The position numbers and the translations under genes were made by a program. 64,000 bases of DNA, taken from positions 1-64,000 of IMG/VR virus record IMGVR_UViG_3300001528_000360; one strand, written 5' to 3'. Under the pieces are notes generated by a model that saw only the letters and a program-made list of their open reading frames with translations, made no database searches and was not told the DNA's origin. The stretch comes from a virus (taxonomy: Duplodnaviria > Caudoviricetes). Positions 9,197-46,245 of the stretch are shown in pieces; within the stretch, counting starts at the first letter, position 1; the number at the start of each line of letters is the position of its first letter.

Positions 9197-10672
9197 TTAA
9201 TTAGGTGCTCTAAATCTAAGTTTATATTCATATCCTCCAACTTTATCAAATGTAGTAGTGATAAATGGAGCATCAACAAATGTTTTACCAGTACCTAAGT
9301 TATTAGGTTCATAAATATTAGCATGTAAATATCTGCTTTGTCTCGAACTATTGAGGTTGAATTCTGCTAATGAAGTAGGACTCATATCCTCTTTCCATGA
9401 GTATTCATATTGAATAGCATACTCAGGCATTTTTACAATATTTCCTTTAGTCCAAGCAAATGCATTGGAAGGAATATTTGTAGGAAATACTCCTGTATAT
9501 TTTGACCAGAATAAAATAGTTTCTCCATCAGGACCACACAGGAAATAATATACAGAACAAGCATAATCTAAAGTATGGCTAGTAATACTTGATCTTTTTA
9601 CATCAAATTCACCACGATATACTCTAGAAATATATTCTACCCAAGCCTTATGAATTTTATATACATTAAGATTACTATCATCTGTATATGTAATATCAAA
9701 TTCACCAGCATTTTTTGAATTAATATTATGCTTACCATATTTAATTTTCCATCCTGTGTAAGTAGCTCCATACTCACCAGTATCAATATATTCGTCTTTA
9801 TTTCCGAAGCTTGCAGCTACGTTAGAAAGATAAGGATTAAAATCATGAGTACTTGAAAAACTCATAGTTAATGATTTTAATAAATCAGGACTATTCTTAT
9901 TTAAGAAATAGTAGAAAGAGTCATTACTAATTTTATCTAATAATGCTCCAGTTGACTCATTATATAGATTTAAGTCTGGACGTGTAAAAAACACATGTGC
10001 AAATGTTTTTGGTAAAGATGTTTCAGGGAATGCTATTAAGAAACGATTAAATTTATTTAAAAGATTATTCTTAACAGCAGATACAGCATCAGCATTTAAA
10101 CCGATATTTAAGTTATTCTCAATTTTATTGATATCATTTATTACAAATGAGTAGTCATTAAAATACTTATCTTTTTTTACATTAGATTTAACTCTATCTA
10201 CTGTAGTATATGATACATAGTTTGTAATATCATCATTTAATAATTCACCAGATGTAGAGTAAATAACCCCACCACTAGATGCAGAACCAAATGAAATATA
10301 ATCACTATTCTTTTCAAGATTTTTAGCATTAACAGTAGGAGCTACATATGTAGATACAATAGGTTCAGGTTCAGGTGTTTTTACCTCAGAAGGATCATCA
10401 ACCAATTCCCAACTGGTTAAAAAAGATTTATTTAACCATACATACACAGTACCTGATGCATTAATTTTATACTTTTGAGGATCAATTAATTTATAATAAT
10501 TATTGGTTCCGCCAACATCAGGATCAGCATAAAAATAAGGTCCTTCAGGACAATTCTTTCTATATAAAATACCAGGAGATGGTGAATTTTTAGTCATAGC
10601 TGTTCTGGTAAATACACCTGTATTATCACCATTTACATAATTGAAATTACATTTATAAATCTTTTTAGCCAT
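9197..10672 (-). CDS. Putative baseplate/tail-tube initiator (tube-like fold)
   Basis: Late motif at 10709; HVFFTRPDLN and YTGVFPTNIP tube-like motifs; N-terminal domain shared with 2084..3958. Confidence 0.55.
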   Translation of the reverse strand: MAKKIYKCNFNYVNGDNTGVFTRTAMTKNSPSPGILYRKNCPEGPYFYADPDVGGTNNYYKLIDPQKYKINASGTVYVWLNKSFLTSWELVDDPSEVKTPEPEPIVSTYVAPTVNAKNLEKNSDYISFGSASSGGVIYSTSGELLNDDITNYVSYTTVDRVKSNVKKDKYFNDYSFVINDINKIENNLNIGLNADAVSAVKNNLLNKFNRFLIAFPETSLPKTFAHVFFTRPDLNLYNESTGALLDKISNDSFYYFLNKNSPDLLKSLTMSFSSTHDFNPYLSNVAASFGNKDEYIDTGEYGATYTGWKIKYGKHNINSKNAGEFDITYTDDSNLNVYKIHKAWVEYISRVYRGEFDVKRSSITSHTLDYACSVYYFLCGPDGETILFWSKYTGVFPTNIPSNAFAWTKGNIVKMPEYAIQYEYSWKEDMSPTSLAEFNLNSSRQSRYLHANIYEPNNLGTGKTFVDAPFITTTFDKVGGYEYKLRFRAPN

Positions 10673-23473: not shown

Positions 23474-25287
23474 TTATTCGAATTTCGTTAACATGTAAAG
23501 GGTCTGCACGCCCTCATTAGTTGTAGTACGCATATTCTGTCCTTGAATATTTAAAATATGACTCTTACTCATCATTAATCGTCTAGCTTCATCATTAGCC
23601 TCCTGAGTAAATAAACCTCTAATAGAGATCTGATCTCCCGTTTATGTTCATATAAGATCGTTAATCTTATATCGTTCATTTAAGAACAGCTTTATATTAC
23701 TATAAAGGCCAGACTATATCATCATCTTTTTAAGATGCTCTCTATTTCCACTCACTTGAGTGTACTAATAGTCGTTGAACCTTACTTCATAAGAAGTCTT
23801 GGCTGCTGATTATCTTATAAAAGATTTTCCAGCAATTAAGAGAGTTATTCGACATATATTTCTATATGAAGCGACTATATTTAATCGTAATCACCGCCTA
23901 ATCCTTTTAGCATAAGGTTAGACATAGTGATAGTATCATGGAAACTAATTTCAACTTGAGATTTTGATTGACTAAGATCAATATAAGGATAGTTATTATA
24001 TACTGTACCATTAACAAATACAGGAATAGTTTTAGTTGTACTAAGAACTGTTACCTGTGAAGGGAATGTAGAAAAGTAGTCAGTAATAGGATATCGAGTT
24101 ACATATACCATTTTATCTTTAGTCACATCAACAGCAGCCTGATAAAGAATATCACACCAAGTTGCAGGTCTATTTAAAGAAGAACCTTCCTCAGGGTGAT
24201 TCTTATCATAAAGTCGTCCTGTAAATTGTAAATAAACTTTTTCTTTCATATTCTTAACAGGAAGTTGAATAGGAACAAATCTGTCAGTGTGAGAAAAGAT
24301 AAATTGATCAATCTGTTTCTTAATATACTCATCATTAAAGTATAATTCAGGATTATCTAATTCAACAAAGATAATCTCACCATTTTTATCTTTAACAGGA
24401 TATTTCTTTCCTGATTGCTCAAATTCTCTTCTAAAGAATCCTTTTACCCAACTAATAATAAAAGGTGTAAAAAGAGAACAGCACTGAGCAAGCGGAACAC
24501 CAACGTGATAGAAATCTATGTTCATTTCACTCCATTTATTAACATGGAATGTAGGAGCAGAAATAACTGATCTTGCACCATAATCAATTGATTTACCAAG
24601 TAAGTTTCTACGAATAAGACCCTGTTTCTTTTCTAATTTTCCTTTAAGTAAATCATATATTTCAACTAAAGTTTCTTGAATTTTAGCTTTAGTATTAATC
24701 AATGTCATTTCAAAGGAATTATTATCTCTAACAATAGAGCATAGGCGAATTAATCGACTATACTTATCATTAATTTCATGATGGGATAATTTTCCTTTTT
24801 CAATATTTTGAAGATTTACATCTCGATAAAATGCAGGAATAACAATCCAATATTTTGTAAAAATTACATTCTTTTTATAAGCATGTAATAGATCAACTCT
24901 TTCATTACGTGCTAAACTATTATTCTTTTCAAAATTGATTTTCTCCCAATTGTCGTAAAGAAAACGAATGCCGGTTTTTCCAGACTCATCATTTTCCACT
25001 AATACTCCATTCTCAATAACATATTTTTTTGTGCCATGTACGATATGTTTAAAATTACGATTTAATCGTAAGATCAATTTATAGATAAAGGGATGAATAA
25101 AATAATCATGTAGATCAATATATGCATAAGTATTTTTTCTATCATTAATTGATACACCAAAGATATCAGTTGATAATAAACCAGTAGATGAAGGAATACC
25201 TCCACGAACAAATAACATTGGATCAGTTATTTCTTCAAGTTTATTAACATCAATAAATTCTTTAGTATCAAACAAATCTACTATCAT
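23474..25287 (-). CDS. Phage RNA polymerase beta' subunit, N-terminal part; spliced join(25287..23884, 23638..23474), 522 aa
   Basis: GLIRRNLLGKSIDYGARSVIS and TRYP motifs; splicing restores catalytic GGDYD|GDQ; exon 2 encodes EANDEARRLM...GVQTLYMLT as in beta'. Confidence 0.9.
23639..23883 (-). mobile_element. Group I intron (subgroup IA-like, ORF-less, 245 nt) in RNAP beta'
   Basis: P AATTGCTGGAAA, Q AATCAGCAGC, R GTTCAACGACTA, S GATATAGTCT; exon ends in T, intron ends in G; P1 CGAU|UA pairs with UAGUCG. Confidence 0.93.
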
Positions 25288-28254: not shown

Positions 28255-28351
28255 GGTTATATTCCTTTCTGGTTTTATGAGTTTTCCTTCTCATTAATTT
28301 TACTTTATTATAGATATAATATATATTTATAAGTATTAAAAATACGATTTC

Positions 28352-29304: not shown

Positions 29305-29436
29305 ATTAAATTTCTCCTTTTAAAATATATTTTATGATTTTACTATTATTATAATATATATTTATAAATCTCAACTTTACGGTAAAATAATACATTTAAC
29401 ATTTATGTAAGATAAGATAAATAGGAGGTATTCCTA

Positions 29437-29937
29437 ATGAATTCTGAAATGTTTAATAGTCTTTTAGAAGACGTTCAGTTTGTAGATATTATGAATGCTG
29501 ATATATTAAATGAATCTTCATTAAAGTCTGTTGTAAATGATAATTTTAAACATAAAGGAAATAAAAAATTATCTACATTCAGAAATGTTCATGTTGATAA
29601 ATCATATATTAATAAATATAACATCACATATAAATTTTTAAAACATGCTGATCTTAAAGATGATATTACTGTGTGGATGGATAAAGATAAAATTGTTTCA
29701 ATATTAATGATAGATCATAAATCTAATACTTCTCATTTTATAACCGGAATTGAAGTTACAAAAGAATATCAAGGTTATGGTTTAGGAAAACAAGTGTTAG
29801 ATTATGCTGTAAAACAAAAAGGCGCAAATGAGTTATCTGTTATGAAAGATAATAAAGTTGCTATTCGAATGTATGAAAAATATGGATTTAAAAAAGATAA
29901 AAAAGATCATGGACAGATGTATTTCATGCATATTTAA
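29437..29937 (+). CDS. GNAT acetyltransferase with N-terminal shared leader
   Basis: EYQGYGLGK motif A, NKVAIRMYEKYGF; late motif at 29398. Confidence 0.85.
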   Translation: MNSEMFNSLLEDVQFVDIMNADILNESSLKSVVNDNFKHKGNKKLSTFRNVHVDKSYINKYNITYKFLKHADLKDDITVWMDKDKIVSILMIDHKSNTSHFITGIEVTKEYQGYGLGKQVLDYAVKQKGANELSVMKDNKVAIRMYEKYGFKKDKKDHGQMYFMHI

Positions 29938-29953
29938 AAGGATGTGATTAATA

Positions 29954-30718
29954 ATGAAGAAAATTAATTGTCCTCTTTGTGATGAAAGATATACTACATT
30001 AGACGGTCTTTATGATCATATTGAAGAAGATCATAGTGATAATATTCCTAAGGATATGTCAATTCCTCAGTATTTATATTTTTTACGCACAGGAAAAGCT
30101 CATGGGTCTTGTGTTGTTTGTAAGAAAGATACAGAGTGGAATGACGTTACAGGAAAATATAAAAGATTCTGTAACAATCCTAAGTGTAAGGAAACTTACA
30201 GAAAACAATTTGAAAAACGTATGATTGATAAATACGGTAAAACTACACTTTTAAATGAACCTGATCAACAGAGAAAAATGTTAGCACATAGAAGTATTTC
30301 TGGTGAGTATACTTGGTCTGATGGTACTAAGAAGACTTATACAGGAACTTATGAATTAGATTTCTTAAAGTTCTTAGATGCTTTTATGAACTTTGATTCT
30401 GATGATGTATTTGCACCTTCTCCTCATACGTATTATTATATGTATAAAGGAGAAAAGAAATTTTATATTCCTGATTTCTGGATTCCTTCTTTAAATCTTG
30501 AAATCGAAATCAAAGAAAGTGATAATAAACATACTCATATGCAGGTTGACAGAGAAAAAGAAAGATTAAAAGATAATGTAATGAATGGATTTAAAAATAT
30601 CGGATATTTAAAAATCGTTGATAAAAATTATGATGGGTTTTTTAAATATCTTGCAGATAAAAAGGATAAATTTGTTAATGCTAAGAATATTGATTTCTCT
30701 GGTGTTGTTAAAGAATGA
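29954..30718 (+). CDS. C2H2 zinc-finger + TnsA-like PD-(D/E)xK endonuclease
   Basis: CPLC..H...H; CVVC...C...C; YIPDFW...EIEIK. Confidence 0.7.
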   Translation: MKKINCPLCDERYTTLDGLYDHIEEDHSDNIPKDMSIPQYLYFLRTGKAHGSCVVCKKDTEWNDVTGKYKRFCNNPKCKETYRKQFEKRMIDKYGKTTLLNEPDQQRKMLAHRSISGEYTWSDGTKKTYTGTYELDFLKFLDAFMNFDSDDVFAPSPHTYYYMYKGEKKFYIPDFWIPSLNLEIEIKESDNKHTHMQVDREKERLKDNVMNGFKNIGYLKIVDKNYDGFFKYLADKKDKFVNAKNIDFSGVVKE

Positions 30719-30727
30719 GGTGTTTAT

Positions 30728-31336
30728 ATGAATTCTGAGATGTTTAATAGTCTTTTAGAAGACGTTCAATTTGTAGATATTATGAATAATGATATTTTAT
30801 CAGAATCAGTATATCGTAGGAAAACAAATCTTTATATAATTTATCCAGAATCTATGAATGATAATTTTGCACAGCCTGGGGTTTCATTTGGAGCTGATAT
30901 TAATACTGCTGTTTATAATTATAAGCAAAAATTACATACGCATAATAATATTAAAAATCCTCCTGAAAAAGTATATGTTTATATACCAGATGCAGGGCAC
31001 TATGATTTTCGTATGTCTTATGAAAATTTCAATTCTTGGTGGTCACTAGATAAAGTCTACCTTAGGATGATTGGAATAATTAAATTTAATGAAGATTGGT
31101 CTTGGGAGTGGATTGAGAAAGTTGATGAATCATATTGTAATGATTATCAGAATAGTGAATTTGATATTTTAACAGAATCTAAGATTGAATTTGTAAATGA
31201 TAAAGGTGAAGAAGTTCCAAAAGTTTGTCCAAAATGTGGTTCTAAAGTAGGTATATTCCTTAGAGGAGAACCCGTTTTCCTATGTACTAATAAGAAATGT
31301 GGAAAATATTTTGGAACTGTTCCTTGTAAAGATTAA
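30728..31336 (+). CDS. Hypothetical protein with shared leader and C-terminal zinc ribbon
   Basis: First 20 aa identical to 29437; CPKC...CTNKKC. Confidence 0.65.
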   Translation: MNSEMFNSLLEDVQFVDIMNNDILSESVYRRKTNLYIIYPESMNDNFAQPGVSFGADINTAVYNYKQKLHTHNNIKNPPEKVYVYIPDAGHYDFRMSYENFNSWWSLDKVYLRMIGIIKFNEDWSWEWIEKVDESYCNDYQNSEFDILTESKIEFVNDKGEEVPKVCPKCGSKVGIFLRGEPVFLCTNKKCGKYFGTVPCKD

Positions 31337-31352
31337 TAAATGAGGTGACTAT

Positions 31353-32468
31353 ATGAATAAGAATGATTTATATCCTGTGTATATTATTCTCTTTTCTAAT
31401 GATACTGATTTCGGTAAGTTAATTAGAAAAGCTACTGGATCAGAATATTCTCATGCAGTTATTGCATTAGATAGTACTATGAATACTATGTACTCATTTT
31501 CTGATATTCCTTTCTCTCATGCAGGATTTACTGGAGCAGGTTTTGTTAGAGAATCTCTTTGGTCTCCAATGTTTAAGAAGAATAGATATTTTACTATTCT
31601 TGTAACTTTTGTTACAAAAGAACAACGTGACACAATTCAGAATAAGATTGATTATTTCTGTGAAAATTATAGAAAGTTTAAATATAATGATATTGGTCTT
31701 GTTCAGTATTATCTGAATTTTAAGGAAACCAAGGGTCATAGTGAAGACAAGAAGAAACGTTGGTTCTGTTCTGAGTTTGTTTCTTATATGGCTAAGGCTG
31801 GTAACATTAGTGGATTTAATGATATCATGCTTGCACCTGAAGATATCAAGAATCTTAATAATCCTAATGTTATTAATCTTGGTGATTTTACCATTTCTAA
31901 ATTTAAAGAATCCGATTTAATTCGAAAAACTGAAGCAGCTAAGAATACATTTATTAAAAATATGGAAGGTACCATTGTACATGAATCTTTCTATTTTAAT
32001 TATGTAGATGCTGTCAGAGAATCAGGAATTAAGGACATTATTAAGTTAAAAAAGAAAGAATTTAAAGAATCTGAGATCCATGCCTATACTTCCCTTATTG
32101 ACTGGAAGTATTTGTATGATGAGTATATCAAACTATTTCCTAATAGTGATCCTAATAGTAGATTTGATTTATTTGAGTTGATTGTAAGAAAAGTTCTTGT
32201 TCCTTTCCATCGAGATGCTAAACGAGCAACTCAGGAAATTGATGCTGAACTTAGAAATATCTTTAAAATTATTGGAAATTCAGTTATTAAAGCTGTAGAT
32301 GTAGTAAAGGGATTTATTTATACCAACAATGTTGGATATTCATATCCTGAAATGATAAAGTTTGCAACTATTCATGAAGGATTTGAGGAATTTGAAGTAT
32401 TAGTAAATCCTACTCCTACTTTAGCAAATGGACTTAAGAATGATAAGTTTGAAACTTTCTTTGAATAA
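31353..32468 (+). CDS. Permuted papain-like (YiiX/NlpC-P60) enzyme
   Basis: YSHAVI...YN...WFCSEFV. Confidence 0.7.
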   Translation: MNKNDLYPVYIILFSNDTDFGKLIRKATGSEYSHAVIALDSTMNTMYSFSDIPFSHAGFTGAGFVRESLWSPMFKKNRYFTILVTFVTKEQRDTIQNKIDYFCENYRKFKYNDIGLVQYYLNFKETKGHSEDKKKRWFCSEFVSYMAKAGNISGFNDIMLAPEDIKNLNNPNVINLGDFTISKFKESDLIRKTEAAKNTFIKNMEGTIVHESFYFNYVDAVRESGIKDIIKLKKKEFKESEIHAYTSLIDWKYLYDEYIKLFPNSDPNSRFDLFELIVRKVLVPFHRDAKRATQEIDAELRNIFKIIGNSVIKAVDVVKGFIYTNNVGYSYPEMIKFATIHEGFEEFEVLVNPTPTLANGLKNDKFETFFE

Positions 32469-32517
32469 AAAAAATAAGAACTGTATGAGATTAATTTCTC
32501 ATACAGTTCTTTATTAC

Positions 32518-33189
32518 TTATTTGATGAAAGTTGCTACTGGAATACAACTATTATAATCATCATAACGAGATATTTCCATAATAGTTCCTTCAACTTTTT
32601 CATCATCTAATGCATATGATGAATATGCATAATATATATCATGATTCAATACTACAGGTTTATTCATTAAATCAATAAAGAAATCATTATATACTTGAAT
32701 ATTCAATATACCTATATAATCACTAATAAAGTGATTATATTCTTTTTCAAAATATGTAGTTTTTATTTTTTCGCCATTTTCAAATAATTTGTAATTACCA
32801 TATAACAAACCATAATCAAAGCAATAATTATAAACACCATCATTACATATTTTATTATCTGCAGATTCCCCTAAACTAAATACTTCAGTATAAATTTGAT
32901 CTAATGATGGTGATAGAAATATAGTTCGATGATATGTATTTTTTACTAATTTATTTTTTGCATCAATTATAGAATCAGCATTATCAACTATAATTTTATT
33001 ATCGCACATATCTGGATTATATATAGATAATCTAACAAATCCTCGTTTATCTGTATATTTAGTTCCAATCTTATTCAGCATTTCCTGAAAATTTTCTGTT
33101 ACTGTTCGTAAAGGACTAATTTCATCATCTTCAATAACAATATAATTTTCTGGTAAATATAATTTATCTAAATACTTAGGTAATATCAC
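32518..33189 (-). CDS. Hypothetical protein, paralog of 33693..34370
   Basis: Shared KYL.KLYLPE.YI, SLDQIY.E.F, DYGLLY, IPVATF. Confidence 0.65.
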   Translation of the reverse strand: MILPKYLDKLYLPENYIVIEDDEISPLRTVTENFQEMLNKIGTKYTDKRGFVRLSIYNPDMCDNKIIVDNADSIIDAKNKLVKNTYHRTIFLSPSLDQIYTEVFSLGESADNKICNDGVYNYCFDYGLLYGNYKLFENGEKIKTTYFEKEYNHFISDYIGILNIQVYNDFFIDLMNKPVVLNHDIYYAYSSYALDDEKVEGTIMEISRYDDYNSCIPVATFIK

Positions 33190-33661
33190 TTTTTCATCAT
33201 CCTACCTTTTATAATATACTTTTTCTTTTCTTCATCTGATAGATTATCAAACTCTTTAATTTTATCTTGTAATTTCTTTAATTTAGTGGTAGATCCATCA
33301 CTAATTGAATACTTATATATGTCCTTTCCGCAAAATCCAGATAACCCATAAATATAATTATTAAGATCTGAAAAATGTGATAAGGTTTTCATATTAGTAC
33401 ATTTAACTTTACTATATATTACAGATCCGTCTGATGATATTGGATATGAAACATCAGTATTTTTATAGTGTACTTTTATTCTCGGACCATGTTTAGACTG
33501 TTCATGTGATTTAGGCATAATATTCATTTTATCAATTATTCCACTATCACTTATAAATGTATCTTCTTTAACGGGAATTAAAGAATCTAAAAGATCATCA
33601 TCTATCATATTTAATTCATCAATGCTAAAATCATTATATATATATATATATTATTTTCCAT
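33186..33661 (-). CDS. Hypothetical protein (weak DUF4160-like HGPRIKV motif), out of frame at a (TA)8 tract
   Basis: SD AAGGAG before ATG 33661; in frame with the 33608 ORF at (TA)7 or (TA)10. Confidence 0.5.
33635..33650. repeat. (TA)8 simple sequence repeat in the 5' coding region
   Basis: tatatatatatatata seen directly. Confidence 0.85.
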
Positions 33662-33692
33662 AATAATTTCTCCTTATAATTTTAATAATTTA

Positions 33693-34370
33693 TTATATCT
33701 TAGACTTTAAAAATGTTGCTACCGGGATAAACCAATTACCATTATATAAGTCACTATTTAAAATGATTTTTTCTGTTCTTATGCTATCTAAACTAGTAGT
33801 ATTGTAGCAAAATCTGATATCTTCATTTAAATTTACACTAGAATCATGATCTTTTATAAAATCCTGATTATGAAGTGATACATTTAAACAACCTATATAA
33901 TTATCAATGTTATCATTCCAGACATATCTAAGATAATTTGTTCGAACATGTTCATTTTCATGATATAACTCATGTTTACTATACAGTAATCCATAGTCAT
34001 AACAATATTTACGAATATTTGGAGAGTTATAGTCATTGATATTGTCCTGATTCGTCCATAGACAGAAAGATTCTCCATAAATTTGATCTAACGAAAATGA
34101 CATAAATACATATCTATGATAAGCATGTTTAGCTAATTCATCCTTAGATTCTTTAATAGAAGATTTACTATTAATTACTAAATTATCAGCAGAATTGTTA
34201 TAAATGGATAATACTAAAATTCCATCTCTATGCTTAATTGGTATTTTAGGAATCATTGACAATAATTTAGTAATATCTGTACTTGCATTCAAGCAACCTC
34301 CATCAACAGTATTTAGTACTATTATATATTTTTCAGGCAAATATAATTTATTTAAATATTTAGTTTTCAT
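33693..34370 (-). CDS. Early hypothetical protein, paralog of 32518..33189
   Basis: SD AAGGGG before ATG 34370; early motif at 34409. Confidence 0.65.
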   Translation of the reverse strand: MKTKYLNKLYLPEKYIIVLNTVDGGCLNASTDITKLLSMIPKIPIKHRDGILVLSIYNNSADNLVINSKSSIKESKDELAKHAYHRYVFMSFSLDQIYGESFCLWTNQDNINDYNSPNIRKYCYDYGLLYSKHELYHENEHVRTNYLRYVWNDNIDNYIGCLNVSLHNQDFIKDHDSSVNLNEDIRFCYNTTSLDSIRTEKIILNSDLYNGNWFIPVATFLKSKI

Positions 34371-34482
34371 ATATAAATATCCCCTTTTAAATATCATTAT
34401 ATACATTAATAATATATATTTAATTTTAGTTTTGAAAAAATAAATAGAGAAGTATGGTTTTCCATACTTCTCTATTTTTATA

Positions 34483-35550
34483 TTAAATATAATCAATTGC
34501 TTTTAATTTATTTGGAGACCATTCAAAGAGCATAAATCTTTTATTAGCTCCAACAAAGCCTTCTTCTTCAGACCAATTATCTGTAGGAACGCCTGAAGAA
34601 AGTCTACGAACCATTACACCATAGAGGTCTCCCTCTTTTTCATGATGAAGATGACCACAATGAACTTCTCTAACCTTTGCATTTGCAAATTCTATAGGAA
34701 ATTCTATTGTAAATTGTCCTCTCATATCATTAGGACTATTCTTAATATTACTACCATGAGTTATTCCAATAAAGCATCCTTCCCAGGAAATGCATTTTCT
34801 AGGTTTTAAAGAATCATCAATATTTAATTTAGGAAATGCAATATTTAACATTTGAACAAATGCCCAGCTCATGCTTTCGTCATGGTTTCCTTTAGAATAG
34901 TATAAATTAACTTTATCTGAATATTTAAAGGACATTTTAATTATATTAAACCAGAATGTTTTAGCGAGATTCCAAGCTTCTCCGAGATCAATTTTTTCAA
35001 TCGGCCTACCAGAAGAAGTCCTTCCTCTAAAGTCATCATTATGGAATAAATCTTGTCCAATAATGATGTTAATTTCTTTCCAATGTTGTTTTGTAATAAT
35101 AGCTAAAATATTCTTTGCCTGCTCAGTATAATTAGAAAATGGAAAATGCATATCAAATAAAGGAATCTCTAGCATATCATGTGAATTATCACACTCACAA
35201 GGTTCAATATCTACAGGTTGAGTGTTTTCACAAATAGTTGCTAAAAGTTTCTCCATTTGAAAATCTGAAACATGTTGTTTTATCCACGCTTGTACAATTT
35301 CTCCATTTTTATCTACTTGGACAGTTGCATCATGAGGAACAAAGTTGGGGTATGTGCCAGCGTATAAAGTAGAATTATCAGCCCAAGTTTTCTTTTTCCA
35401 TCTATGAAGACTCTTTCTAAAAGTTTCCATAGATGTCTCAGGGAATAATGCTCCATAATATTCTGTATAGATTTCTTTATATGTCTTACCCATATTCAGC
35501 ATATCAATGCATTTTCTCTTAATCTTAACATCTATTATAGAAGCAGCCAC
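34483..35550 (-). CDS. Calcineurin-like metallophosphoesterase
   Basis: DMH, QDLFH, GNHD, THG, GHLHH; late motif at 35579. Confidence 0.85.
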   Translation of the reverse strand: MAASIIDVKIKRKCIDMLNMGKTYKEIYTEYYGALFPETSMETFRKSLHRWKKKTWADNSTLYAGTYPNFVPHDATVQVDKNGEIVQAWIKQHVSDFQMEKLLATICENTQPVDIEPCECDNSHDMLEIPLFDMHFPFSNYTEQAKNILAIITKQHWKEINIIIGQDLFHNDDFRGRTSSGRPIEKIDLGEAWNLAKTFWFNIIKMSFKYSDKVNLYYSKGNHDESMSWAFVQMLNIAFPKLNIDDSLKPRKCISWEGCFIGITHGSNIKNSPNDMRGQFTIEFPIEFANAKVREVHCGHLHHEKEGDLYGVMVRRLSSGVPTDNWSEEEGFVGANKRFMLFEWSPNKLKAIDYI

Positions 35551-35707
35551 TAGTTAATACCTCCAGTCATTTTAGACTTTACATCTATGTTCAAATTTAA
35601 CTCATACCCTCATTTTAAATCTTTTTATATAACGGTTTTCTAATACAAAATATGTACAATTATATAAGACTAAAACGTGTGAAAATTCTAGGAAAGGGAT
35701 GATTTTT

Positions 35708-36544
35708 ATGCGACTTAATAAAGAAGAAGTTATTGCGTATTGTATTATGGAAGAATCTTTAGAGCCTGTACAAGCTGATAATGTACAGGTGTTTGATAAA
35801 AATAGTATGTTTTATCTTCGTTTTAATGCTACATTACAAGATTTTAATGTGAAAAATCGTAATGGTCGTATTTATATGGGATCTGCTATGATTCCTTCAT
35901 TGACTGCTGATCATATTATGGAACTTCAGAGAAATGGTTCTTGGTTTGGTGAATGTGGTCATCCGATGTCTGATGATATTAAGCGTATCTTAACGATTGA
36001 TCCTAAGCTTATTTCTCATCGTATTGTTAAGCATGAGGTCAATAACTATAGATGCACTGGTACTATCGAAACTCTGGATACTGAGTTTGGTCGTCAGATG
36101 ACTAAGAGCATTCTTCAGGGTATGAATCCTGCATTTAGTTTAAGAGCTTTAGCTCCTCTGGTTAAAAAGCCTGATGGTACTGCTGTTGTTCAGTCTAAAT
36201 GTCATGCCGTTTGTTATGACTGGGTTATTCTTCCTAGTCATAGAGTAGCTTACAGAGATCAGTCTTCTCCTATTGAGAAGGTTGTTAAAAAACTTGTTGA
36301 AAATGGTAATGTTGTTAATGAAGGTTCTGTTGTTCCTGTAAATGAGAGTGCTATTAAGGACTTTATTTCTATGGAGTCTCAGAATGTTAAGTTAGTATCT
36401 AATCTTTGTGAAGTTGCTCTTGGTGATATGACTTTATCTAAGGATATGCGTCATGTTATTCTTAAAGAGGGTAATGATAGTTTTGTTGTTAAACTTGAAG
36501 ATAAGATCAAATATGATATCAATAATTATATGAGACAGCTCTAA
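35708..36544 (+). CDS. Prohead (capsid maturation) protease, T4 gp21-like
   Basis: KNRNGRIY, GECGHP, ISH, FSLRA; late motif at 35655. Confidence 0.85.
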   Translation: MRLNKEEVIAYCIMEESLEPVQADNVQVFDKNSMFYLRFNATLQDFNVKNRNGRIYMGSAMIPSLTADHIMELQRNGSWFGECGHPMSDDIKRILTIDPKLISHRIVKHEVNNYRCTGTIETLDTEFGRQMTKSILQGMNPAFSLRALAPLVKKPDGTAVVQSKCHAVCYDWVILPSHRVAYRDQSSPIEKVVKKLVENGNVVNEGSVVPVNESAIKDFISMESQNVKLVSNLCEVALGDMTLSKDMRHVILKEGNDSFVVKLEDKIKYDINNYMRQL

Positions 36545-36567
36545 TTTTTTAAGGAGGCTATTACATT

Positions 36568-37017
36568 ATGGATAATAAAATGTTATTTTCCTTAATGGAA
36601 GATGCTCAATTTGTTGATATCATGAATATTGATATTGTACAAGAAGGCTATTGGAAACAATTAGGCTGGGGTATGAAAAACATTTTAGGTAATTTAAAAG
36701 ATGGTGGGAGTCCATTATATACTGGTAATTTTTCAGGTTTACAGTCTAGACTATTGGGCTTTGTTAAGAGTTGTAAGAGTGTAAATGATTGTAATTATCT
36801 TTTAAATGATGCCCGAAGCGCTAAAACTATGATTAATAAATTAAAGGATAATCTTACTAAGTATATTAATAAAGATCCAAATGCTAAAATCAATAAAAAA
36901 GATATGGAAAAACGAGTAAAGATGGGTTTGACTCCTGCTAAGATTGACTCATATTTAAAATGGATTGATAATACATATATTCCGGCTATTAAGAAAAAGA
37001 AAGCTGAACTTAAATAA
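36568..37017 (+). CDS. Basic protein with shared N-terminal leader
   Basis: MDNKMLFSLMEDAQFVDIMNIDIVQEG leader; Lys-rich remainder. Confidence 0.65.
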   Translation: MDNKMLFSLMEDAQFVDIMNIDIVQEGYWKQLGWGMKNILGNLKDGGSPLYTGNFSGLQSRLLGFVKSCKSVNDCNYLLNDARSAKTMINKLKDNLTKYINKDPNAKINKKDMEKRVKMGLTPAKIDSYLKWIDNTYIPAIKKKKAELK

Positions 37018-37138: not shown

Positions 37139-38749
37139 ATGTATTTGACAATTGATACTAAGAAAGTTTTAGATAGTAAAAAACCTAAAGTTGATGCTCT
37201 GACAGAATCATTTCATGTTGCTAAAGAGAATCAAACTCCTACAAATGTGATTAATTTCTTATCTTTATATAGAAATACTTCTAAAGATACTATTTTAGAG
37301 AATCTTTCTTCTCTTTGTGATATTGATTCAGATATGACTTTCTCATATTTTGAAAATGTATTAAACATTGCAGAATTGTCTGAAAGTACTTTAAATGAGT
37401 ATAAATCTCATATTCAGTCTTTAATGGAATCTTGTGAAGAAGATCTCTATAAAGATAAATTAACTAATGCTAATAGTAAAATTGATTCTGTCATTGAAAA
37501 TATGAATGATATGAATAACATTCATGATGAAATGATGATGAATCTTGCTGTTAGCAGAATTAGAAAATCTTGCATGTTTGAATCTTATTTAGCAGATGAT
37601 TTAGAGGTTTTAATTTATAATATTAATAGTTCTCCAGAGGTTATTTATGATTATGAACAGATTATCAGAAAAATTAAAACTGATAAGTCAGGAATGTATC
37701 AATCAAGTTATGGTATGCTTCTTATTAAGAATACTGAAATGATTCGTAATTTACAGATTGTTGTTACTGGTGACGTTCTTGAACTGTTAACTAGTATGCC
37801 TAATGTAATTGCTGATAAAATCATTTCTTCTAATATGTCACCTAGTGTTATCAGGAACTTTATTAAGATCTATGATAAACAGATTGTTACTCTGTATTCT
37901 GATTTAAAACGTAATGAACCTAAACAGTATATTTTATATTCAACTTATGTAAGAAATCTTTCTGAAGCTAAGCAAAAAATTCTTGATTCTTTAAAGACTC
38001 CTTTAAAAGAAAATATTGCAGAAATGTCTCCTGATATTATTCTTTATGATGAAGGAGTTATTGAAGATTTTATTGCTGAGATGGAAGATTCTCTTGCAGA
38101 TATTATTTTTGATCCAGGCAAAGAATTAAATGAAACTAAGCTTGAAAATTTTGCTAAATTATATCGTACATATGAAGCTACTAGTAAGCTTCAGAAAGGT
38201 ATGATTTCTGCAGGACATAAAGCTGGAAATACTGCACAGAAAGCTGTTTCTAAGATGAAGTCTAATATGACTGATGCTAAGAGAGCTACTCTTCCTGTTA
38301 AGAAGGCTTTAGATCCTTTTTTTAATTTATTTAGTGATACCATCAATAAATTAAAAGATATGGATAAAAAGGAAAGAACCGAACGTATTATTACAGGAAA
38401 TTATCGTGCTAAATTAGTTAATTTTATTAAACGCGGTATTGTAGGTATTGCTGCTATTGGTGCTGCTGGTGCTGGCGCAAAGGTTGCTGCTGGTATTGTA
38501 TTTTCACCTAAGATTGTTGGATTAATTCTTGCCGCTATTACTATTCTTGTCGGTACAGCCATTGACAAGAAAATTGATAAGAAACATCGTCAGGCTATTC
38601 TTGTTGATCTTAAAAATGAACTTACTCTTGTTGAAGAAAAGATCGAAGATGCTAAGGGTGATGGTGCTCGTGATAAGAAGTATCAATTAATGCGTATTCA
38701 GCAGAAATTGAAGAAAGATATTGAAAGAATTGAATATAATCTGGATTAA
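37139..38749 (+). CDS. Putative head core/internal protein with a hydrophobic hairpin
   Basis: Late motif at 37089; acidic N-part with xES sites, basic C-part with a Gly/Ala-rich hydrophobic stretch. Confidence 0.5.
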   Translation: MYLTIDTKKVLDSKKPKVDALTESFHVAKENQTPTNVINFLSLYRNTSKDTILENLSSLCDIDSDMTFSYFENVLNIAELSESTLNEYKSHIQSLMESCEEDLYKDKLTNANSKIDSVIENMNDMNNIHDEMMMNLAVSRIRKSCMFESYLADDLEVLIYNINSSPEVIYDYEQIIRKIKTDKSGMYQSSYGMLLIKNTEMIRNLQIVVTGDVLELLTSMPNVIADKIISSNMSPSVIRNFIKIYDKQIVTLYSDLKRNEPKQYILYSTYVRNLSEAKQKILDSLKTPLKENIAEMSPDIILYDEGVIEDFIAEMEDSLADIIFDPGKELNETKLENFAKLYRTYEATSKLQKGMISAGHKAGNTAQKAVSKMKSNMTDAKRATLPVKKALDPFFNLFSDTINKLKDMDKKERTERIITGNYRAKLVNFIKRGIVGIAAIGAAGAGAKVAAGIVFSPKIVGLILAAITILVGTAIDKKIDKKHRQAILVDLKNELTLVEEKIEDAKGDGARDKKYQLMRIQQKLKKDIERIEYNLD

Positions 38750-38764
38750 AGGAGATGAATAATT

Positions 38765-39514
38765 ATGGATATATTTGATATTTTAAAAGAAGCAAAGAAT
38801 CCATCTCCTGCTAAAAAAGTTATTAGAGTTAGTACTAATGATAATACTGACTATACTGAGGAATTAGATGATGCTTCTCCTCAGGCAGATGAGAATATTG
38901 ATGCTACTAGTCAAGAAGATTCAGTTGATTATACTTCTGATATTGAAGAGGTAGAGCCTGGATCTAATGAAGAAACTAATACAGATGAATCTGAAGATGA
39001 TGCTTCTGATAATGACGATGAATCGAATGATTATACTGATAATTTAGATCAGGATGAAGATAATCCTGATCAAGATACTGATGAAACTACTGATGATGGT
39101 GCTCCTGAATCAACAGATTATACTGAAGATGCTGGTGATACCGGAGATGAAACTCAGGATGATGGAATGGGTGATGATACCCAGGATGATCAATCTCAGG
39201 AAGAAGCTAATCCTGAGCAAGAATTAGAGAATAAACAAAACATGGAATTATTAAATCGAACTGTCGAATTATATAATTCCGTATGTGGTATTTGTAATAA
39301 ACTTGATGCTATTACTCATATGAATATTTTAGCAAATAAAGTTAATATTCAAGTAAAACGTAACTTTAATAATCTTTGTAGTTATATCTATAAATTTATT
39401 ACAGGACCGTTTTTGACAAATTCTTATGTTAAGAATCTCTATATTTATAATTTTATCATTCAGACCTATAGAATTAATCTAGAGATGCTTAAGAAAATAA
39501 ATACATTAGAGTGA
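38765..39514 (+). CDS. Highly acidic putative scaffold/core protein
   Basis: D/E-rich with four DYT repeats; directly before the capsid gene. Confidence 0.5.
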   Translation: MDIFDILKEAKNPSPAKKVIRVSTNDNTDYTEELDDASPQADENIDATSQEDSVDYTSDIEEVEPGSNEETNTDESEDDASDNDDESNDYTDNLDQDEDNPDQDTDETTDDGAPESTDYTEDAGDTGDETQDDGMGDDTQDDQSQEEANPEQELENKQNMELLNRTVELYNSVCGICNKLDAITHMNILANKVNIQVKRNFNNLCSYIYKFITGPFLTNSYVKNLYIYNFIIQTYRINLEMLKKINTLE

Positions 39515-39679: not shown

Positions 39680-39708
39680 TTTAATTAAGAAAGGATGTGC
39701 TCTTTATT

Positions 39709-41661
39709 ATGTACGAGTATTTAGATACTGAAAACACTAGCAAAGTTATTGGTTCTTTTTCTCATGATAAAAATGCCGAGTTTAAGGATAGCGTGAAGCA
39801 CCTGTTTGAGAGCTTCCAGAGCTCTTATCAGATGGATGCTATTTCTGATATCTCGAAGATTCTGCGCGTCGACACTCTTAAGGAGGCTTATAAGAATGAG
39901 CTTCTTTCTGACGTTGCCGAGAGCCAGCTTAATGATGAATATTATGCTATGATGCCTGAGAAGCTTGAGCAGCTGTTTGAGAACTCTTCTCTGGAGATGC
40001 TCCAGGAGTCCGGTGTTGCCGCTCTTGCTCCTATCGTTGGTATTACTCTGCCTATCTTGAAGAAGTCCTACATTGAGGGTCATTCTAAGGATATCGTTAT
40101 GACTGAGGTTCCTAGCAAGCCCATTATCAAGGCTGCTTATGAGCGTCGTTTCCTGAAGGATGCCCAGGGTAACAAGCATTACATCCCTGACATTTTCTAT
40201 GATGATTCTTATAAGACCATCATGGCTATGGGTCGTGGTAAGGCTGTGTCTTCCAAATGGTATCCCGAGGGTTCTGAGAAGGTTCCTTTCCAGGATCTTG
40301 ACATTCTTGGCGAATCCGGTGGTTCTATTGCCCGTCGTGATTCTCTTGCTCTCGACTTCTGCATTAAGGCTGTTCAGATTGATGTTAACGGCACTCTTGT
40401 GAATGTTCCTGTTAACATTACTCCGAATCTTGCTGCTAATAGCTCCTTCACTGCTGAGGTTAAGGCCTCTAAGGATGGTACTACTGTTAAGGATCTGGTC
40501 ATTGGTCAGGTTGACTTCTATAATGGTACTGTTTCCGTTGGTTGCACTGGTGGTAAGGTTGCTAAGGTTCAGTTTGGCGGTCATCTGTCTAACGAGAACA
40601 ACAATGAGACCATTGAGCTCGATCGTGAGCGTGAGCTGATGGAGTGGAAGATTCCTGATGGTGTTCGCATCAACACGGGTCTCACTCTTGAAAAGATTAA
40701 GGATTACAAGGCTCTGTTTGATTTCGATATTACTACCGAGATCATTGCTGATATGTCTACCGTTCTCTCCCAGACTGAGGATAGCGATATTCTTGGCTTC
40801 CTGAACGATAGCTATGATACTTGGAAGACTCGCACTGAGCTGCCGTTTGGTTACAGTGATGGCTTCACTGCTGAGGGTTACTTCTCCTGCGAGCCTCCTG
40901 CCAATAAGTTCGTCACTCGTTCTCAGTGGATTGATAGCGAGCTTAAGTATGACCTCAACCGCTTCATTGATGAGCTGAAGGTCAAGCTCCGCAATCAGGA
41001 TCTGATGTTTGTGGTGTATGGTCATCCCAATGTCATCACTCTCATTCAGGATAACGTCCGCTGGGTCATCGACGAGGATACCAAGATTGGTGGCATCCAG
41101 CTCGATTATCGTTTTGGTGTTATGACTGCTAACAAGAATCGTATCCACGTTATCAGCACTATGAAGTGCCCGAAGAGCCGTGGTCTGCGTGTTGTTGCTT
41201 ATCCTCTCACTAAGGAAATCATTACGTTCAAGCACTATAAGTATAGTCTGAACATTGAGAACGCTTATCGTAACGCTCTCACTCCGCTTACTCCGAACGT
41301 CATGGGTACGTCTCGTTACATTACTACCGAGGTTCTGCCTGTTCAGGGTGAGTTCCATGTTATGGATAACCAGTTTGCTCTTAAGGATCCGACTGCTCCC
41401 GCTACTGCACAGGTTGCTACTCCTGTGATTAGCCTGGCTTCCGGTACTTATTCCGCTGCTCAGACTGTTACCGTTGATTGCGCTACTCCTGGCGTGAACA
41501 TCTATTATACCGTTGATGGTTCTGATCCTGTTGTCGGTACTTCTCCTCTGATGAATGCTTCCATTAGCATTGCTGCTACCTCCACTCTGAAGGTTATCGC
41601 TGCTAAGGCTGGTATGATCCAGAGCAATATCGTTACCGCTGAGTACACCATCAATCCGTAA
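39709..41661 (+). CDS. Major capsid protein with C-terminal Fn3-associated/CHB_HEX_C Ig-like domain
   Basis: Strongest codon bias in the window; position after protease/scaffold; acidic propeptide ending LQES; C-terminal VATPVISLASGTY...IYYTVDGSDP. Confidence 0.8.
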   Translation: MYEYLDTENTSKVIGSFSHDKNAEFKDSVKHLFESFQSSYQMDAISDISKILRVDTLKEAYKNELLSDVAESQLNDEYYAMMPEKLEQLFENSSLEMLQESGVAALAPIVGITLPILKKSYIEGHSKDIVMTEVPSKPIIKAAYERRFLKDAQGNKHYIPDIFYDDSYKTIMAMGRGKAVSSKWYPEGSEKVPFQDLDILGESGGSIARRDSLALDFCIKAVQIDVNGTLVNVPVNITPNLAANSSFTAEVKASKDGTTVKDLVIGQVDFYNGTVSVGCTGGKVAKVQFGGHLSNENNNETIELDRERELMEWKIPDGVRINTGLTLEKIKDYKALFDFDITTEIIADMSTVLSQTEDSDILGFLNDSYDTWKTRTELPFGYSDGFTAEGYFSCEPPANKFVTRSQWIDSELKYDLNRFIDELKVKLRNQDLMFVVYGHPNVITLIQDNVRWVIDEDTKIGGIQLDYRFGVMTANKNRIHVISTMKCPKSRGLRVVAYPLTKEIITFKHYKYSLNIENAYRNALTPLTPNVMGTSRYITTEVLPVQGEFHVMDNQFALKDPTAPATAQVATPVISLASGTYSAAQTVTVDCATPGVNIYYTVDGSDPVVGTSPLMNASISIAATSTLKVIAAKAGMIQSNIVTAEYTINP

Positions 41662-43259: not shown

Positions 43260-46245
43260 ATGGGAAAATCATTTATTTATGATGTAAATACAGCAAATAT
43301 TTCTTTTGTACAAACTGCAGTAGACTTAAAGAAATTAGGGATTAAAAATAATATGTTCTTTTTAAAATTGTATGATCCATCATTAAAAGGAGTAGATCCG
43401 CATTCTCCTTTCCTTACTAATGATCAGATCATTAGAATTATTAATGAGTGTATTATTAATCCCTGGTATTATTTAAGAGAAGTTGCAAGAATTCCTGACC
43501 AGGGTAATGTAAAAGGTGTTCCTTATCTTTTAAATAGAGCTAACTTAGCAGCAACATGGTGTTTTCTAAATGGTATTGATCATTATGAAGTTATTCCTAG
43601 ACAGATTGGTAAAACTGAATCCACCATTGCTATAATCACATGGGCTTTCTTATTTGGAACAACGAACTCAGAAATGATGTTCTTAAATATTACAGCCGAT
43701 CGTGCCTATGCTAACCTAGCTAAAGTAAAAGATCAGAGAGCATTATTACCCCCATATTTACAGTTTAAAGTTGCATTTGATGATGAAGGAAAAGAAATTA
43801 AAGCTACAGATAATACAAAATCTTTAAAGAATGCAACTAATGGAAATTCAATTGTAACAAAACCTTCTGCTCGTGGTATTGAATCTGCTGAAAGAATTGG
43901 TCGTGGTTCTTCTCAGGTTATTCAGTATTATGATGAGTTTGAGTTTATTTCTTATATCAAAACTATTATGGAAGCCGCGGGTCAATTGGCTCTCATGTTT
44001 TTACAACATGATAACTCCTTTAATTGCTGGAAACTCTCGTTAGGTTATCAGTACTTATAGTAACATAAGTGACAATCTGATAAATAGAGACAATCAGCAG
44101 CCAAGCCTTATATGTCTTTATATAAGGAAGGTTCAACGACTATCGAAAAGGTACTATAAGAGAAATACTTATAGGAGTAACTGAGTAGAGTACACTTAAA
44201 TGTGGAAATGGGGAGCATTTTATATATGGTAATAGTATATAAGATGAAGATATAGTCTATATTCTATAGAGATATAGAATAATAAAATGCCGGCTTATAA
44301 TACTGCTGCAGAGAATGCTAAAAGAAATAATGCTATACATTGTCGTTAAAGTAAGCGACATATACATAGTAATATGTATTGGAAACTCTCTTAATTGCTG
44401 GAAAGTCTTTTTATAAGATAATCAGCAGCCAAGGCTCGAAAGAGTAAGGTTCAACGACTATTAAGTACACTCAAGTGGGTGGAAATGGAGAGCTCCTTAT
44501 TATTTAAGGATGAAGATATAGTCTGGTCTCTATAGTGATATAGAGCAGTTCTTAAATGAACGATATAAGATTAACGATCTTATATGAACGAGAAATACGA
44601 TCTTTACAAGCACGCCAGGTGACTTAGATTCACAGCCTGGTGAAGATGCATTACAAATTGTTGAAAAAACTTGCAAGTGGTCAGAAAGTCTTTACGATAA
44701 ACCTATTGAAGATGTTCTTGACTATATTGCAATGAACTCTGAAAATAATATAGTATATATTGAATATCAATATCAGCAACTTGGTAAAGATGAAACTTGG
44801 TTTAATAAAGTTTGTGCATTATTGAATAATAATAAGCTTAAAATTCAACGAGAAATATTCTTAAGACGTATGCATGGTAGCTCTCAGTCTCCTTATGATC
44901 CTGAAGATCTTGATGCTATTCAGGATAAAAAAGGAACGATTAAAGAAGAGCTATTTATTAATAGAATTTTTAAGCTTGATATTTATGAAACTCTTGTAAA
45001 AAATAGAATTTACTTTATTGGTGTTGACGTTTCAAATGGTTATGGTTTGGATAATTCAGCAGTTACAATTTTTGATCCTTATGCACTTAAAGTTGTTGCA
45101 GAATTTAAATCTCCGCATATTGGTGTAAAGGACTTAATCAAGTTCTTATATATCCTAGTTAGAAAATATCTACCTAATTCTATCTTAGCAATTGAGCGAA
45201 ATGCAAATGGTGAAGCAGTGCTTGATCATTTAAGAGATAGTGAAATTAGAGGAAACTTATACTTTGATAATTCTAAAGAAATTAATGTTGATGATAAGTT
45301 AGACGGACAAGGTTTTATTCGTAAGGAAGCCGCACGTAGACAATTATATGGTAAACAAATGCCTTATAATATAGTAATATATTATACAGATTTCTTTAAT
45401 TGCTGGAAAGTCTTTTATAAGATAATCAGCAGCCAAGACTCTTATATAAGAGTAAGGTTCAACGACTAGTCTTTATGACGTACACTCAAGTGAGTGGAAA
45501 TAAGAAATATCCTATATAGGATAAAGATATAGTCTCATCTCTATAGTGATATAGAGCAGTTCATAAAAGAACGATATAAGAGTAACGATCTTATATGAAG
45601 ATATTGATTTGGACAGGCGGTAAATCTCGTGAGATTATGTTCTCTCTGTTGGATGAATATGTAAAAGAACACAAAGATGCTTTTGTTGGTCATTATGTTA
45701 TTGATGACTTGATGAAACTTGTTCGTGTTAATTCTAAGATACAAGCTGTAACAGGACAGCATGATGATAATATTATGTCGTTCTTAATGTGCTTGTATTT
45801 ATATTATTATGGTAATAATCTTGCTCGTTATGGTTTTACTAGAGGATCTCTTCCTGATGAAGAAGATCAGAATAAAGGAATGGATTATGGTGAAATCGTT
45901 AATGCTTTATCTGATACTGATAAAGAATTCTTTGGAATTGATAGTAATACACCGATTGATCAACCATTAAACATTGATATGATGTCAATGATAAATAATG
46001 GAAGAGGATTGATTTCTAAAGAGGAATTAAGAAGTGGAATTAATGATAATTCTATGAAAAAAATAAGACAACCTACAATGGATGCTTATTCAGCAAAGGT
46101 TTATAATGAAATGATGCAAGCTCAGAGAGAATCTGAAGCATTTAATAATAGAGTCGGATTCACTAATGGATATAGAAATATGGATGAAAGTGGAGAAGAT
46201 GACTATAGTTATAATTTAGATGTTTTTGATGAGCTAAATAGTTAA
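43260..46245 (+). CDS. terL: Terminase large subunit; spliced join(43260..43982, 44290..44346, 44600..45352, 45607..46245), 723 aa
   Basis: Walker A PRQIGKT, Walker B YYDEF, coupling motif IFTSTPG, nuclease IGVDVSNG, IERN, HDD; three introns remove in frame. Confidence 0.92.
43983..44289 (+). mobile_element. Group I intron 1 of terL (307 nt, ORF-less)
   Basis: P/Q/R/S core motifs; GGT|caa 5' site with P1 GGGU|C : GGCUC; terminal G before CCG. Confidence 0.9.
44347..44599 (+). mobile_element. Group I intron 2 of terL (253 nt, ORF-less)
   Basis: P/Q/R/S motifs; P1 UGUCGU|U : AGCGACA; terminal G before ATC TTT ACA AGC ACG CCA. Confidence 0.93.
45353..45606 (+). mobile_element. Group I intron 3 of terL (254 nt, ORF-less)
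   Basis: P/Q/R/S motifs; P1 GGU|A : UGCC; terminal G before ATT TGG. Confidence 0.9.

Follow-up and report, generated by a model that had tools for sequence, protein, structure and literature searches.

A candidate capsid-targeting leader shared by unrelated proteins of an uncultured AR9-like jumbo phage

In a 64,000-nucleotide stretch of viral DNA (positions 1 to 64,000 of IMG/VR record IMGVR_UViG_3300001528_000360; hereafter the window), three genes encode the same acidic N-terminal leader of 26 residues in front of otherwise unrelated proteins, which we call its cargos. From its sequence and by analogy with the capsid-targeting sequence (CTS) of phage T4, this leader is probably a capsid-targeting and processing propeptide. 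The leader is modular, its peptide is conserved while the cargos turn over, one copy is linked to the slot behind the prohead protease, and the box in which it ends recurs in head-assembly proteins. An earlier reading of the sequence (the original prediction) had proposed such a tag, and it was borne out in part: modularity, selection at the peptide level, a cleavage-type box, the protease slot and a late-type promoter motif all speak for it.

The window opens a contig of 152 kb, and the virus record is estimated to be 62% complete. The contig is AT-rich (GC content of ~29%). Its source is an uncultured AR9-like giant (jumbo) phage, with a major capsid protein that has ~25% identity to its counterparts in the Bacillus phages AR9 and PBS1 and in related jumbo phages of Staphylococcus, Listeria and Yersinia.

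Three unrelated proteins share one leader

The leader genes lie on the forward strand and start at 29437, 30728 and 36568, as originally predicted, with open reading frames (ORFs) of 29437–29937 (166 aa), 30728–31336 (202 aa) and 36568–37017 (149 aa); we number their leaders and cargos 1 to 3 in this order (Table 1). The leader makes up codons 1–26 of all three proteins, confirming its N-terminal position, and a Shine–Dalgarno sequence is found 7–11 nt upstream of each ATG. With a net charge of −5 to −6, the leader is built in two parts, a conserved core (E-D-x-Q-F-V-D-I-M) and a terminal D-I-L/V-x-E box. Similarity between the copies ends exactly at Glu26↓Ser/Gly27 (the arrow marks the proposed cut here and below), codons 28–54 being at random level (25–37% nucleotide identity), and the cargos behind the three leaders have no BLASTP similarity to one another; the claim that one tag precedes unrelated domains therefore stands. 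In an AlphaFold2 (AF2) model of the cargo 3 protein, the leader is flexible, apart from a confidently modelled helical domain.

A six-frame scan of the whole 152-kb contig with a hidden Markov model (HMM) of the leader recovered these three copies only (E = 4e-19 to 2e-18; next match, 0.23). Likewise, a screen for ORFs that are alike only at the N terminus singled out the leader family, plus one unrelated pair of virion proteins. A word-indexed protein search with leader residues 1–40 returned no proteins beyond the window's own.

Peptide conservation amid cargo turnover

In their first 60 nt, copies 1 and 2 are identical except for two synonymous changes, GAA/GAG and CAG/CAA, a likeness that the original prediction had taken as a sign of selection on the peptide. 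At 89% DNA identity over 81 nt, this pair proves little alone, since a duplication in the recent past would leave the same trace; the support for selection comes instead from copy 3 and the relatives described below. Over the 20-codon core, copies 1 and 3 share 7 identical codons, with a further 7 differing only synonymously and 6 non-synonymously. Across all leader pairs (19–20-codon core), the ratio of non-synonymous to synonymous change (dN/dS) is 0.2–0.5 and the proportion of synonymous differences (pS) is 0.3–0.76, with synonymous sites near saturation, and no Rfam family matches at the leader region. Thus, conservation acts on the peptide and not on DNA or RNA, even as the cargos are exchanged. 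That the leader might be conserved only as nucleic acid is highly unlikely, as the peptide has been kept through many synonymous changes.

Relatives are found in a group of IMG/VR contigs whose protease is 84% identical to that of the window and whose 263.8-kb member G001 is rated 100% complete. Each of three G001-type contigs searched over the whole record carries the leader on exactly two genes. In this group, one is a 144-aa gene directly after the protease, and the other is a 159-aa gene ~1.2 kb away on the opposite strand. The five copies from the window and G001 have 13 invariant columns. When the post-protease slots of the two phages were compared, the leader alone aligned (58% identity over 31 residues) and nothing beyond it; all-against-all BLASTP of the five cargos found no similarity, and the G001 cargos have no detectable membership of the cargo 3 family (hhalign probability 0.1). 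The GNAT and zinc-ribbon cargos of the window are absent from G001, and the 159-aa cargo of G001 was not found in this contig, which covers ~62% of the genome. The leader is therefore found on differing cargos in relatives, with the two tagged genes of G001 themselves carrying unrelated cargos. The promoter region upstream of leader gene 1 also precedes the G001 homologue of ORF 31353–32468, so that the block of GNAT, nuclease-like and cargo 2 genes represents an indel between the promoter and a conserved last gene.

Leaders are more alike within than between genomes: position 20 is Asn in the three window copies and the aligned residue is Thr in both G001 copies, a uniformity that fits gene conversion or co-evolution with a common partner. 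Three metagenome proteins match the leader profile with a diverged N-terminal leader (P0005, E = 4e-8; P0024, E = 2e-7; P0004, E = 1.5e-4). P0004 and P0005 combine a different middle domain with the same zinc ribbon as cargo 2, and P0024 is a cargo 3 homologue, for which a related-locus search in IMG/VR found none. Degenerate DNA patterns of the leader core, run against IMG/VR, metagenome contigs and GTDB genomes, returned only G001-type contigs plus presumed chance matches. The pattern matches in L001–L012 and L033–L038 were judged to be chance on account of internal positions, other contexts or overlapping ORFs. One of these is a 310-aa protein whose N-terminal peptide includes E-D-A-Q-F-x-D-I-M (L038:3865-4797, + strand; identical stretch in L037), whose gene adjoins that of a 1265-aa internal-virion-like protein in an unrelated phage contig.

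The terminal box recurs in head-assembly proteins

The prohead protease call was upheld: the product of 35699–36544 matches Peptidase_S80 (PF20034) over residues 46–228, with 33.2 bits against a cut-off of 23.4, and a head maturation protease in PHROGs (E = 3e-22). One leader copy is tied to the slot directly behind this protease in two phages. The box D-I-[LVI]-x-E-[SGA] occurs eight times in the ORFs of the contig against 0.7 expected. Three of the matches are the leaders themselves, and one is the additional site of cargo 2, which lies shortly before the zinc ribbon. The others are residues 5–10 of an acidic scaffold-like protein whose gene lies just upstream of the capsid gene, one capsid-internal site, which is not conserved in G001, and two other ORFs.

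Candidate sites of a similar kind are found across the head genes. The P-V-N-E↓S site in the protease tail, located in a linker before the C-terminal tail, is conserved in three phages. The A-L-T-E↓S site (residue 23) of a 536-aa head-operon protein is conserved in G001; by eye, the C-terminal part of this protein resembles the AR9 virion protein g115. At the candidate propeptide boundary of the capsid protein, the window phage and G001 both have M-L-Q-E↓S, AR9 has I-L-Q-E↓S and G004 has I-V-N-E↓A. Cleavage after Glu is common to the head proteases of T4 (gp21), phiKZ, 201phi2-1 and SPN3US (PMC5694885), and T4 CTS peptides are removed by such a cut (PMC5694885; PMC9026906). At published S80-family sites of phiKZ and SPN3US, the P3 residue is small (S/A/G-x-E or A-x-E; PMC5694885).

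Cargo-type modules are joined in polyproteins

The cargo 3 family comprises 57 matches among 1.8 billion representatives. Its standalone members have short, variable, acidic N termini, most of which close with hydrophobic-x-Glu before a Ser, Gly or Ala. A cargo-3-like domain is also embedded in long multi-enzyme proteins of other phages, in which the polyprotein modules are a phosphoesterase plus two GNATs, NUDIX, HAD, a nuclease-like module homologous to the product of 29954–30718 and, at the C terminus, a module homologous to that of 31353–32468. Long multi-module ORFs are real under the standard code; one example is L063:8001-11264, which is a relative of the P0035 polyprotein and is itself without a cargo-3-like domain. 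Of 31 distinct boundaries after the cargo-3-like domain, 28 have a Glu followed by Ser, Gly or Ala at most 20 residues past the domain end, compared with 28% of background windows, and free-standing genes start about where the polyprotein joints lie. These patterns suggest that the Glu↓Ser/Gly joints of the polyproteins are head-protease sites. The leader HMM gave no significant internal match in the polyproteins. A leader-like peptide before the papain-fold module (L063; P0035) was a visual impression that gained no HMM support, and it was set aside.

Leader and Glu↓Ser/Gly joints may form a single 'cargo grammar' in the AR9-like clade, a generalization about which we are doubtful. Enzymes would be either singly tagged or strung together in polyproteins, all of them cut by the S80 protease with a T4-like preference for Leu/Val-x-Glu. 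The enzymes concerned are GNAT, NUDIX, HAD, phosphoesterase, nuclease-like and papain-fold proteins, those in polyproteins being strung around a cargo-3-like domain. If such a grammar existed, the injected effectors of uncultured jumbo phages would be predictable from sequence alone.

Proposed mechanism and alternative explanations

From these features of the sequence we infer docking, cleavage, packaging and ejection of the cargos. The tagged proteins, namely a RimI-like GNAT, a zinc-ribbon protein and the small basic helical protein encoded behind the protease, would be made late. The leader core E-D-x-Q-F-V-D-I-M would dock them onto some constituent of the prohead core during its assembly, the Peptidase_S80 protease would cut after Glu26 in the D-I-L/V-x-E↓S/G box to leave the mature cargo free inside the head, and the cargo could then exit with the DNA at infection. 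The late-promoter motif upstream of leader gene 1, for which the AR9 consensus was taken from PMC5312081, is suggestive only because it occurs 0.61 times per kb per strand; the early-promoter motif near this gene faces the opposite direction. If the mechanism is correct, the tag marks accessory proteins that are carried in the head and delivered with the DNA, yielding concrete effector candidates, and the RimI-like acetyltransferase would be a candidate early modifier of host proteins, as Alt is in T4. The AR9/phiKZ supergroup, with its S80 protease, would then join the T4-like phages in following the CTS principle, and the leader would offer a short tag to try for loading foreign proteins into such capsids.

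Several observations weigh against this proposal. The AR9 genome contains no leader-profile match and no second copy of the g115 N terminus, and the family is small, with 2–3 leader genes per genome. Half of the eight box matches are the leaders and cargo 2 themselves, and the looser pattern [ILVM]-x-E-[SGA] is not enriched in ORF N termini (21/197 versus 21/152), so that only the specific D-I-[LVI]-x-E-[SGA] box carries weight. The proposed P3 residue is Leu or Val, unlike at published S80 sites, and the likeness of leaders within a genome is explained by gene conversion as well as by co-evolution with a receptor.

The leader might instead be a zymogen-like propeptide, holding the cargo in an inactive or soluble state until it is removed, or might only mark a protease substrate, in either case with no part in capsid targeting. 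Its terminal cleavage-type box and flexible model fit this explanation equally well, and an acidic leader could mask the basic cargos, as two of the three have an isoelectric point (pI) of 9.6 or 9.9. However, we consider it unlikely, given that cargo 2 is not basic (pI 6.0), that the most conserved part of the leader is the nine-residue core upstream of the cut box, which a mere cleavage signal would not need, and that targeting and processing determinants lie in different parts of the CTS in T4 (PMC9026906). Similarly improbable is an uncleaved tag for docking or oligomerization with a non-capsid partner, for instance a protein of the host or a phage complex for replication or transcription. 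In favour of such a tag, cleavage of the leader is no more than predicted, and the uniformity within genomes (Asn versus Thr at aligned position 20) would fit co-evolution with any common partner. Against it, two phages have one copy fixed in the slot that separates the prohead protease from the head-assembly genes, the leaders cease to be alike exactly at a Glu↓Ser/Gly box that also opens the scaffold-like protein, and the promoter motif is of the late type.

In a third alternative, leader and polyprotein joints would be cut not by the prohead protease but by the YiiX-like papain-fold protein encoded at 31353–32468. His34 and Cys139 of this protein are invariant in the alignment, its N-domain (AF2 predicted local distance difference test (pLDDT) score mostly 65–90) matches the fold of the cysteine peptidase 3kw0 and YiiX (Foldseek probability 0.99–1.0 for 3kw0 and 2if6), and a built-in peptidase has often been proposed as the processor of polyvalent phage proteins (PMC5512222). 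Yet the combination of P1 Glu and a hydrophobic P3 is a signature of T4-type and phiKZ-type head proteases, the same box is present in the scaffold-like protein, with similar Glu sites in the capsid protein and the protease itself, and G001 has the papain-fold gene although its two leader genes lie elsewhere. TseH and other cell-wall amidases also belong to the fold family, so the protein may be cargo in its own right; a role as processing enzyme is less likely than this, and quite unlikely overall. Finally, we find it highly improbable that the common 5′ ends have no function at the protein level and were left over from duplication or recombination, or serve as a nucleic-acid signal for translation or RNA structure. 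The near-identical copies 1 and 2 (89% over 81 nt) do flank the nuclease-like gene, and window and G001 differ by an indel of the three-gene block, but copy 3 and the relatives keep the peptide through synonymous changes (pS 0.3–0.76, dN/dS 0.2–0.5), the leader outlasts replacement of its cargo, and Rfam has no match there.

Comparison with known systems

The principle is not new. It is that of the T4 CTS, long known and previously considered for giant phages as well (PMC5694885), so the gain is incremental. Particular to the present case are the AR9-like phage with its S80 protease, a longer two-part leader, the cargo swap in the post-protease slot, and the tie to polyproteins with Glu↓Ser/Gly joints.

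In T4, the CTS is carried by IPI, IPII, IPIII and Alt and is removed by gp21 (Mullaney & Black 1996; reviewed in PMC9026906). Like the leader described here, it is a short N-terminal peptide on otherwise unrelated, mostly small basic or enzymatic proteins, ends in hydrophobic-x-Glu, the head-protease site in T4, and has cargo sets that vary among related phages. In both cases an enzyme (the ADP-ribosyltransferase Alt in T4, a GNAT here) is found beside small basic proteins. By contrast, the T4 CTS has 10–19 residues and the window leader has 26 in two parts; by inspection, the latter has no sequence similarity to the 10-residue T4 CTS beyond the hydrophobic-x-Glu end. The protease here belongs to the Peptidase_S80 (phiKZ gp175) family only and not to that of T4 gp21. 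Moreover, CTS function was demonstrated experimentally in T4, whereas the window leader is known from sequence alone.

The phages phiKZ, 201phi2-1 and SPN3US resemble the source phage in having an S80-type protease family and a cut after Glu (PMC5694885, PMC10052503). In SPN3US, the paralogous ejection proteins gp53 and gp54 have identical 15-residue N termini, which the authors called CTS-reminiscent (PMC5694885, PMC10052503). Common N termini in SPN3US-type giants are those of paralogues, and most of their propeptides exceed 100 residues, whereas the present leader is short and precedes non-homologous cargos. At P3, phiKZ/SPN3US-type sites have Ala, Ser or Gly in place of the Leu or Val seen here.

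RimI-like GNATs are among the domains predicted to be packaged in the capsid and injected in a study of polyvalent proteins from phages and conjugative elements (Iyer et al. 2017, PMC5512222). Similar to polyvalent proteins are relatives of the cargo modules, in which GNAT, NUDIX, HAD, phosphoesterase, nuclease-like and papain-fold modules are fused in proteins of up to ~2,200 residues. The tagged proteins of the window differ from the polyvalent type, each consisting of one cargo or of one cargo plus a zinc ribbon. The genes of the window operon are single-module, two of them with an N-terminal tag, and multi-domain forms are found only among relatives in other phages. In addition, the joints of the fused forms resemble head-protease Glu↓Ser/Gly sites and not the sites of a built-in zincin peptidase proposed for polyvalent proteins.

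Cargos and operon genes

Coordinates of the leaders, cargos and neighbouring features are collected in Table 1.

Table 1 Leader copies, cargos and associated features of the window
Feature	Position	Strand	Details
AR9-type late-promoter motif AACA-N6-TA	29398..29409	+	39 nt upstream of leader gene 1; motif scan
Leader copy 1	29437..29514	+	26 codons; ends D-I-L-N-E, then Ser
Cargo 1, GNAT acetyltransferase domain (RimI-like), pI 9.6	29515..29937	+	PF00583
Zinc-finger nuclease-like gene, leaderless	29954..30718	+	phrog_15137, E = 1.4e-70; between leader genes 1 and 2
Leader copy 2	30728..30805	+	26 codons; ends D-I-L-S-E, then Ser
Cargo 2, middle domain plus zinc ribbon, pI 6.0	30806..31336	+	Second D-I-L-T-E↓S box at nt 31163-31180; ribbon from 31196
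YiiX-like permuted papain-fold gene, leaderless, last of the operon	31353..32468	+	Alignment, AF2, Foldseek
Prohead protease, Peptidase_S80	35699..36544	+	Pfam, PHROGs; candidate self-cleavage sites V-V-N-E↓G (36311-36328) and P-V-N-E↓S (36335-36352)
Leader copy 3	36568..36645	+	26 codons; ends D-I-V-Q-E, then Gly; 23 nt past the protease stop codon
Cargo 3, basic helical-bundle domain of ~100 residues, pI 9.9	36646..37017	+	57 homologues, alignment, AF2
536-aa head-operon protein	37139..38749	+	Candidate propeptide end A-L-T-E↓S, nt 37196-37213
Acidic scaffold-like protein	38765..39514	+	D-I-L-K-E↓A box at nt 38777-38794, in the first 9-10 residues; identical in G001
Major capsid protein	39697..41661	+	phrog_20655, E = 9e-60; candidate boundary E-M-L-Q-E↓S at aa 100-105, nt 39994-40011

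The GNAT assignment of cargo 1 proved sound (PF00583, E = 6.7e-11; 42.9 bits against a cut-off of 20.7), and the acetyl-CoA-binding motif Q/R-x-x-G-x-G/A reads Q-G-Y-G-L-G. We give it no GNAT subfamily because its best NCBIfam match, RimI (E = 6e-9), falls under the family cut-off; no close homologue was found among 5.8 billion proteins. The product of the nuclease-like gene 29954–30718 ends in V-V-K-E. Some homologues in other genomes are fusions with the zinc-ribbon module (P0007, P0008) and others stand at the head of polyproteins (P0031, P0023), so that a cargo module, rather than a homing endonuclease, may be encoded here.

For cargo 2, the predicted zinc ribbon is supported by a strongly conserved CPKC...C..KC module, although its Pfam match is weak, and the middle domain had no fold or feature match in an atlas search. 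The ribbon module of ~45 residues (31196–31333, + strand) is 66–81% identical to modules in many differing metagenome proteins, where it sits N- or C-terminally, usually flanked by Glu-Ser joints, with nuclease-like, GNAT and domain of unknown function (DUF)-containing partners. The papain-fold gene is conserved in G001, and its product corresponds to the C-terminal module of polyproteins in other phages; a site in the middle of the protein reads A-V-R-E↓S here and I-L-K-E↓A in G001. Cargo 3 was modelled with high confidence (AF2 pLDDT >90 for residues 50–149), and the model had no fold match at E = 0.001 or better in the PDB or BFVD.

Other features of the window

AR9-type early-promoter motifs (A-A-T-A-T-A-T-A-T-T-A-T) are located on the reverse strand at 29350–29362, 28315–28328 and 34408–34421, so that leftward early-promoter motifs bracket the rightward late cargo operon. 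Between this operon and the protease lie ORFs 32518–33189 (−) and 33693–34496 (−), both without a PHROG match. ORF 33693–34496 is a paralogue of the gene at genome positions 105893–106561 (−), with 45% identity over 170 residues, and ORF 32518–33189 appears by eye to be a third paralogue.

Four group I introns reach at least the Rfam gathering score (23690–23902 on the reverse strand; 43973–44279, 44336–44545 and 45343–45556 on the forward strand). By ORF coordinates, they adjoin or sit within RNA polymerase beta-like and large terminase genes, and the leader genes are untouched.

The virion structural proteins 2084–3958 (+; phrog_20401) and 9197–10672 (−; phrog_21400) are ~55% identical when their first 36–40 residues are compared. 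By eye, the likeness reaches to about residue 85 and the rest of the sequence is dissimilar; this common N terminus looks like a shuffled folded domain and not a leader.

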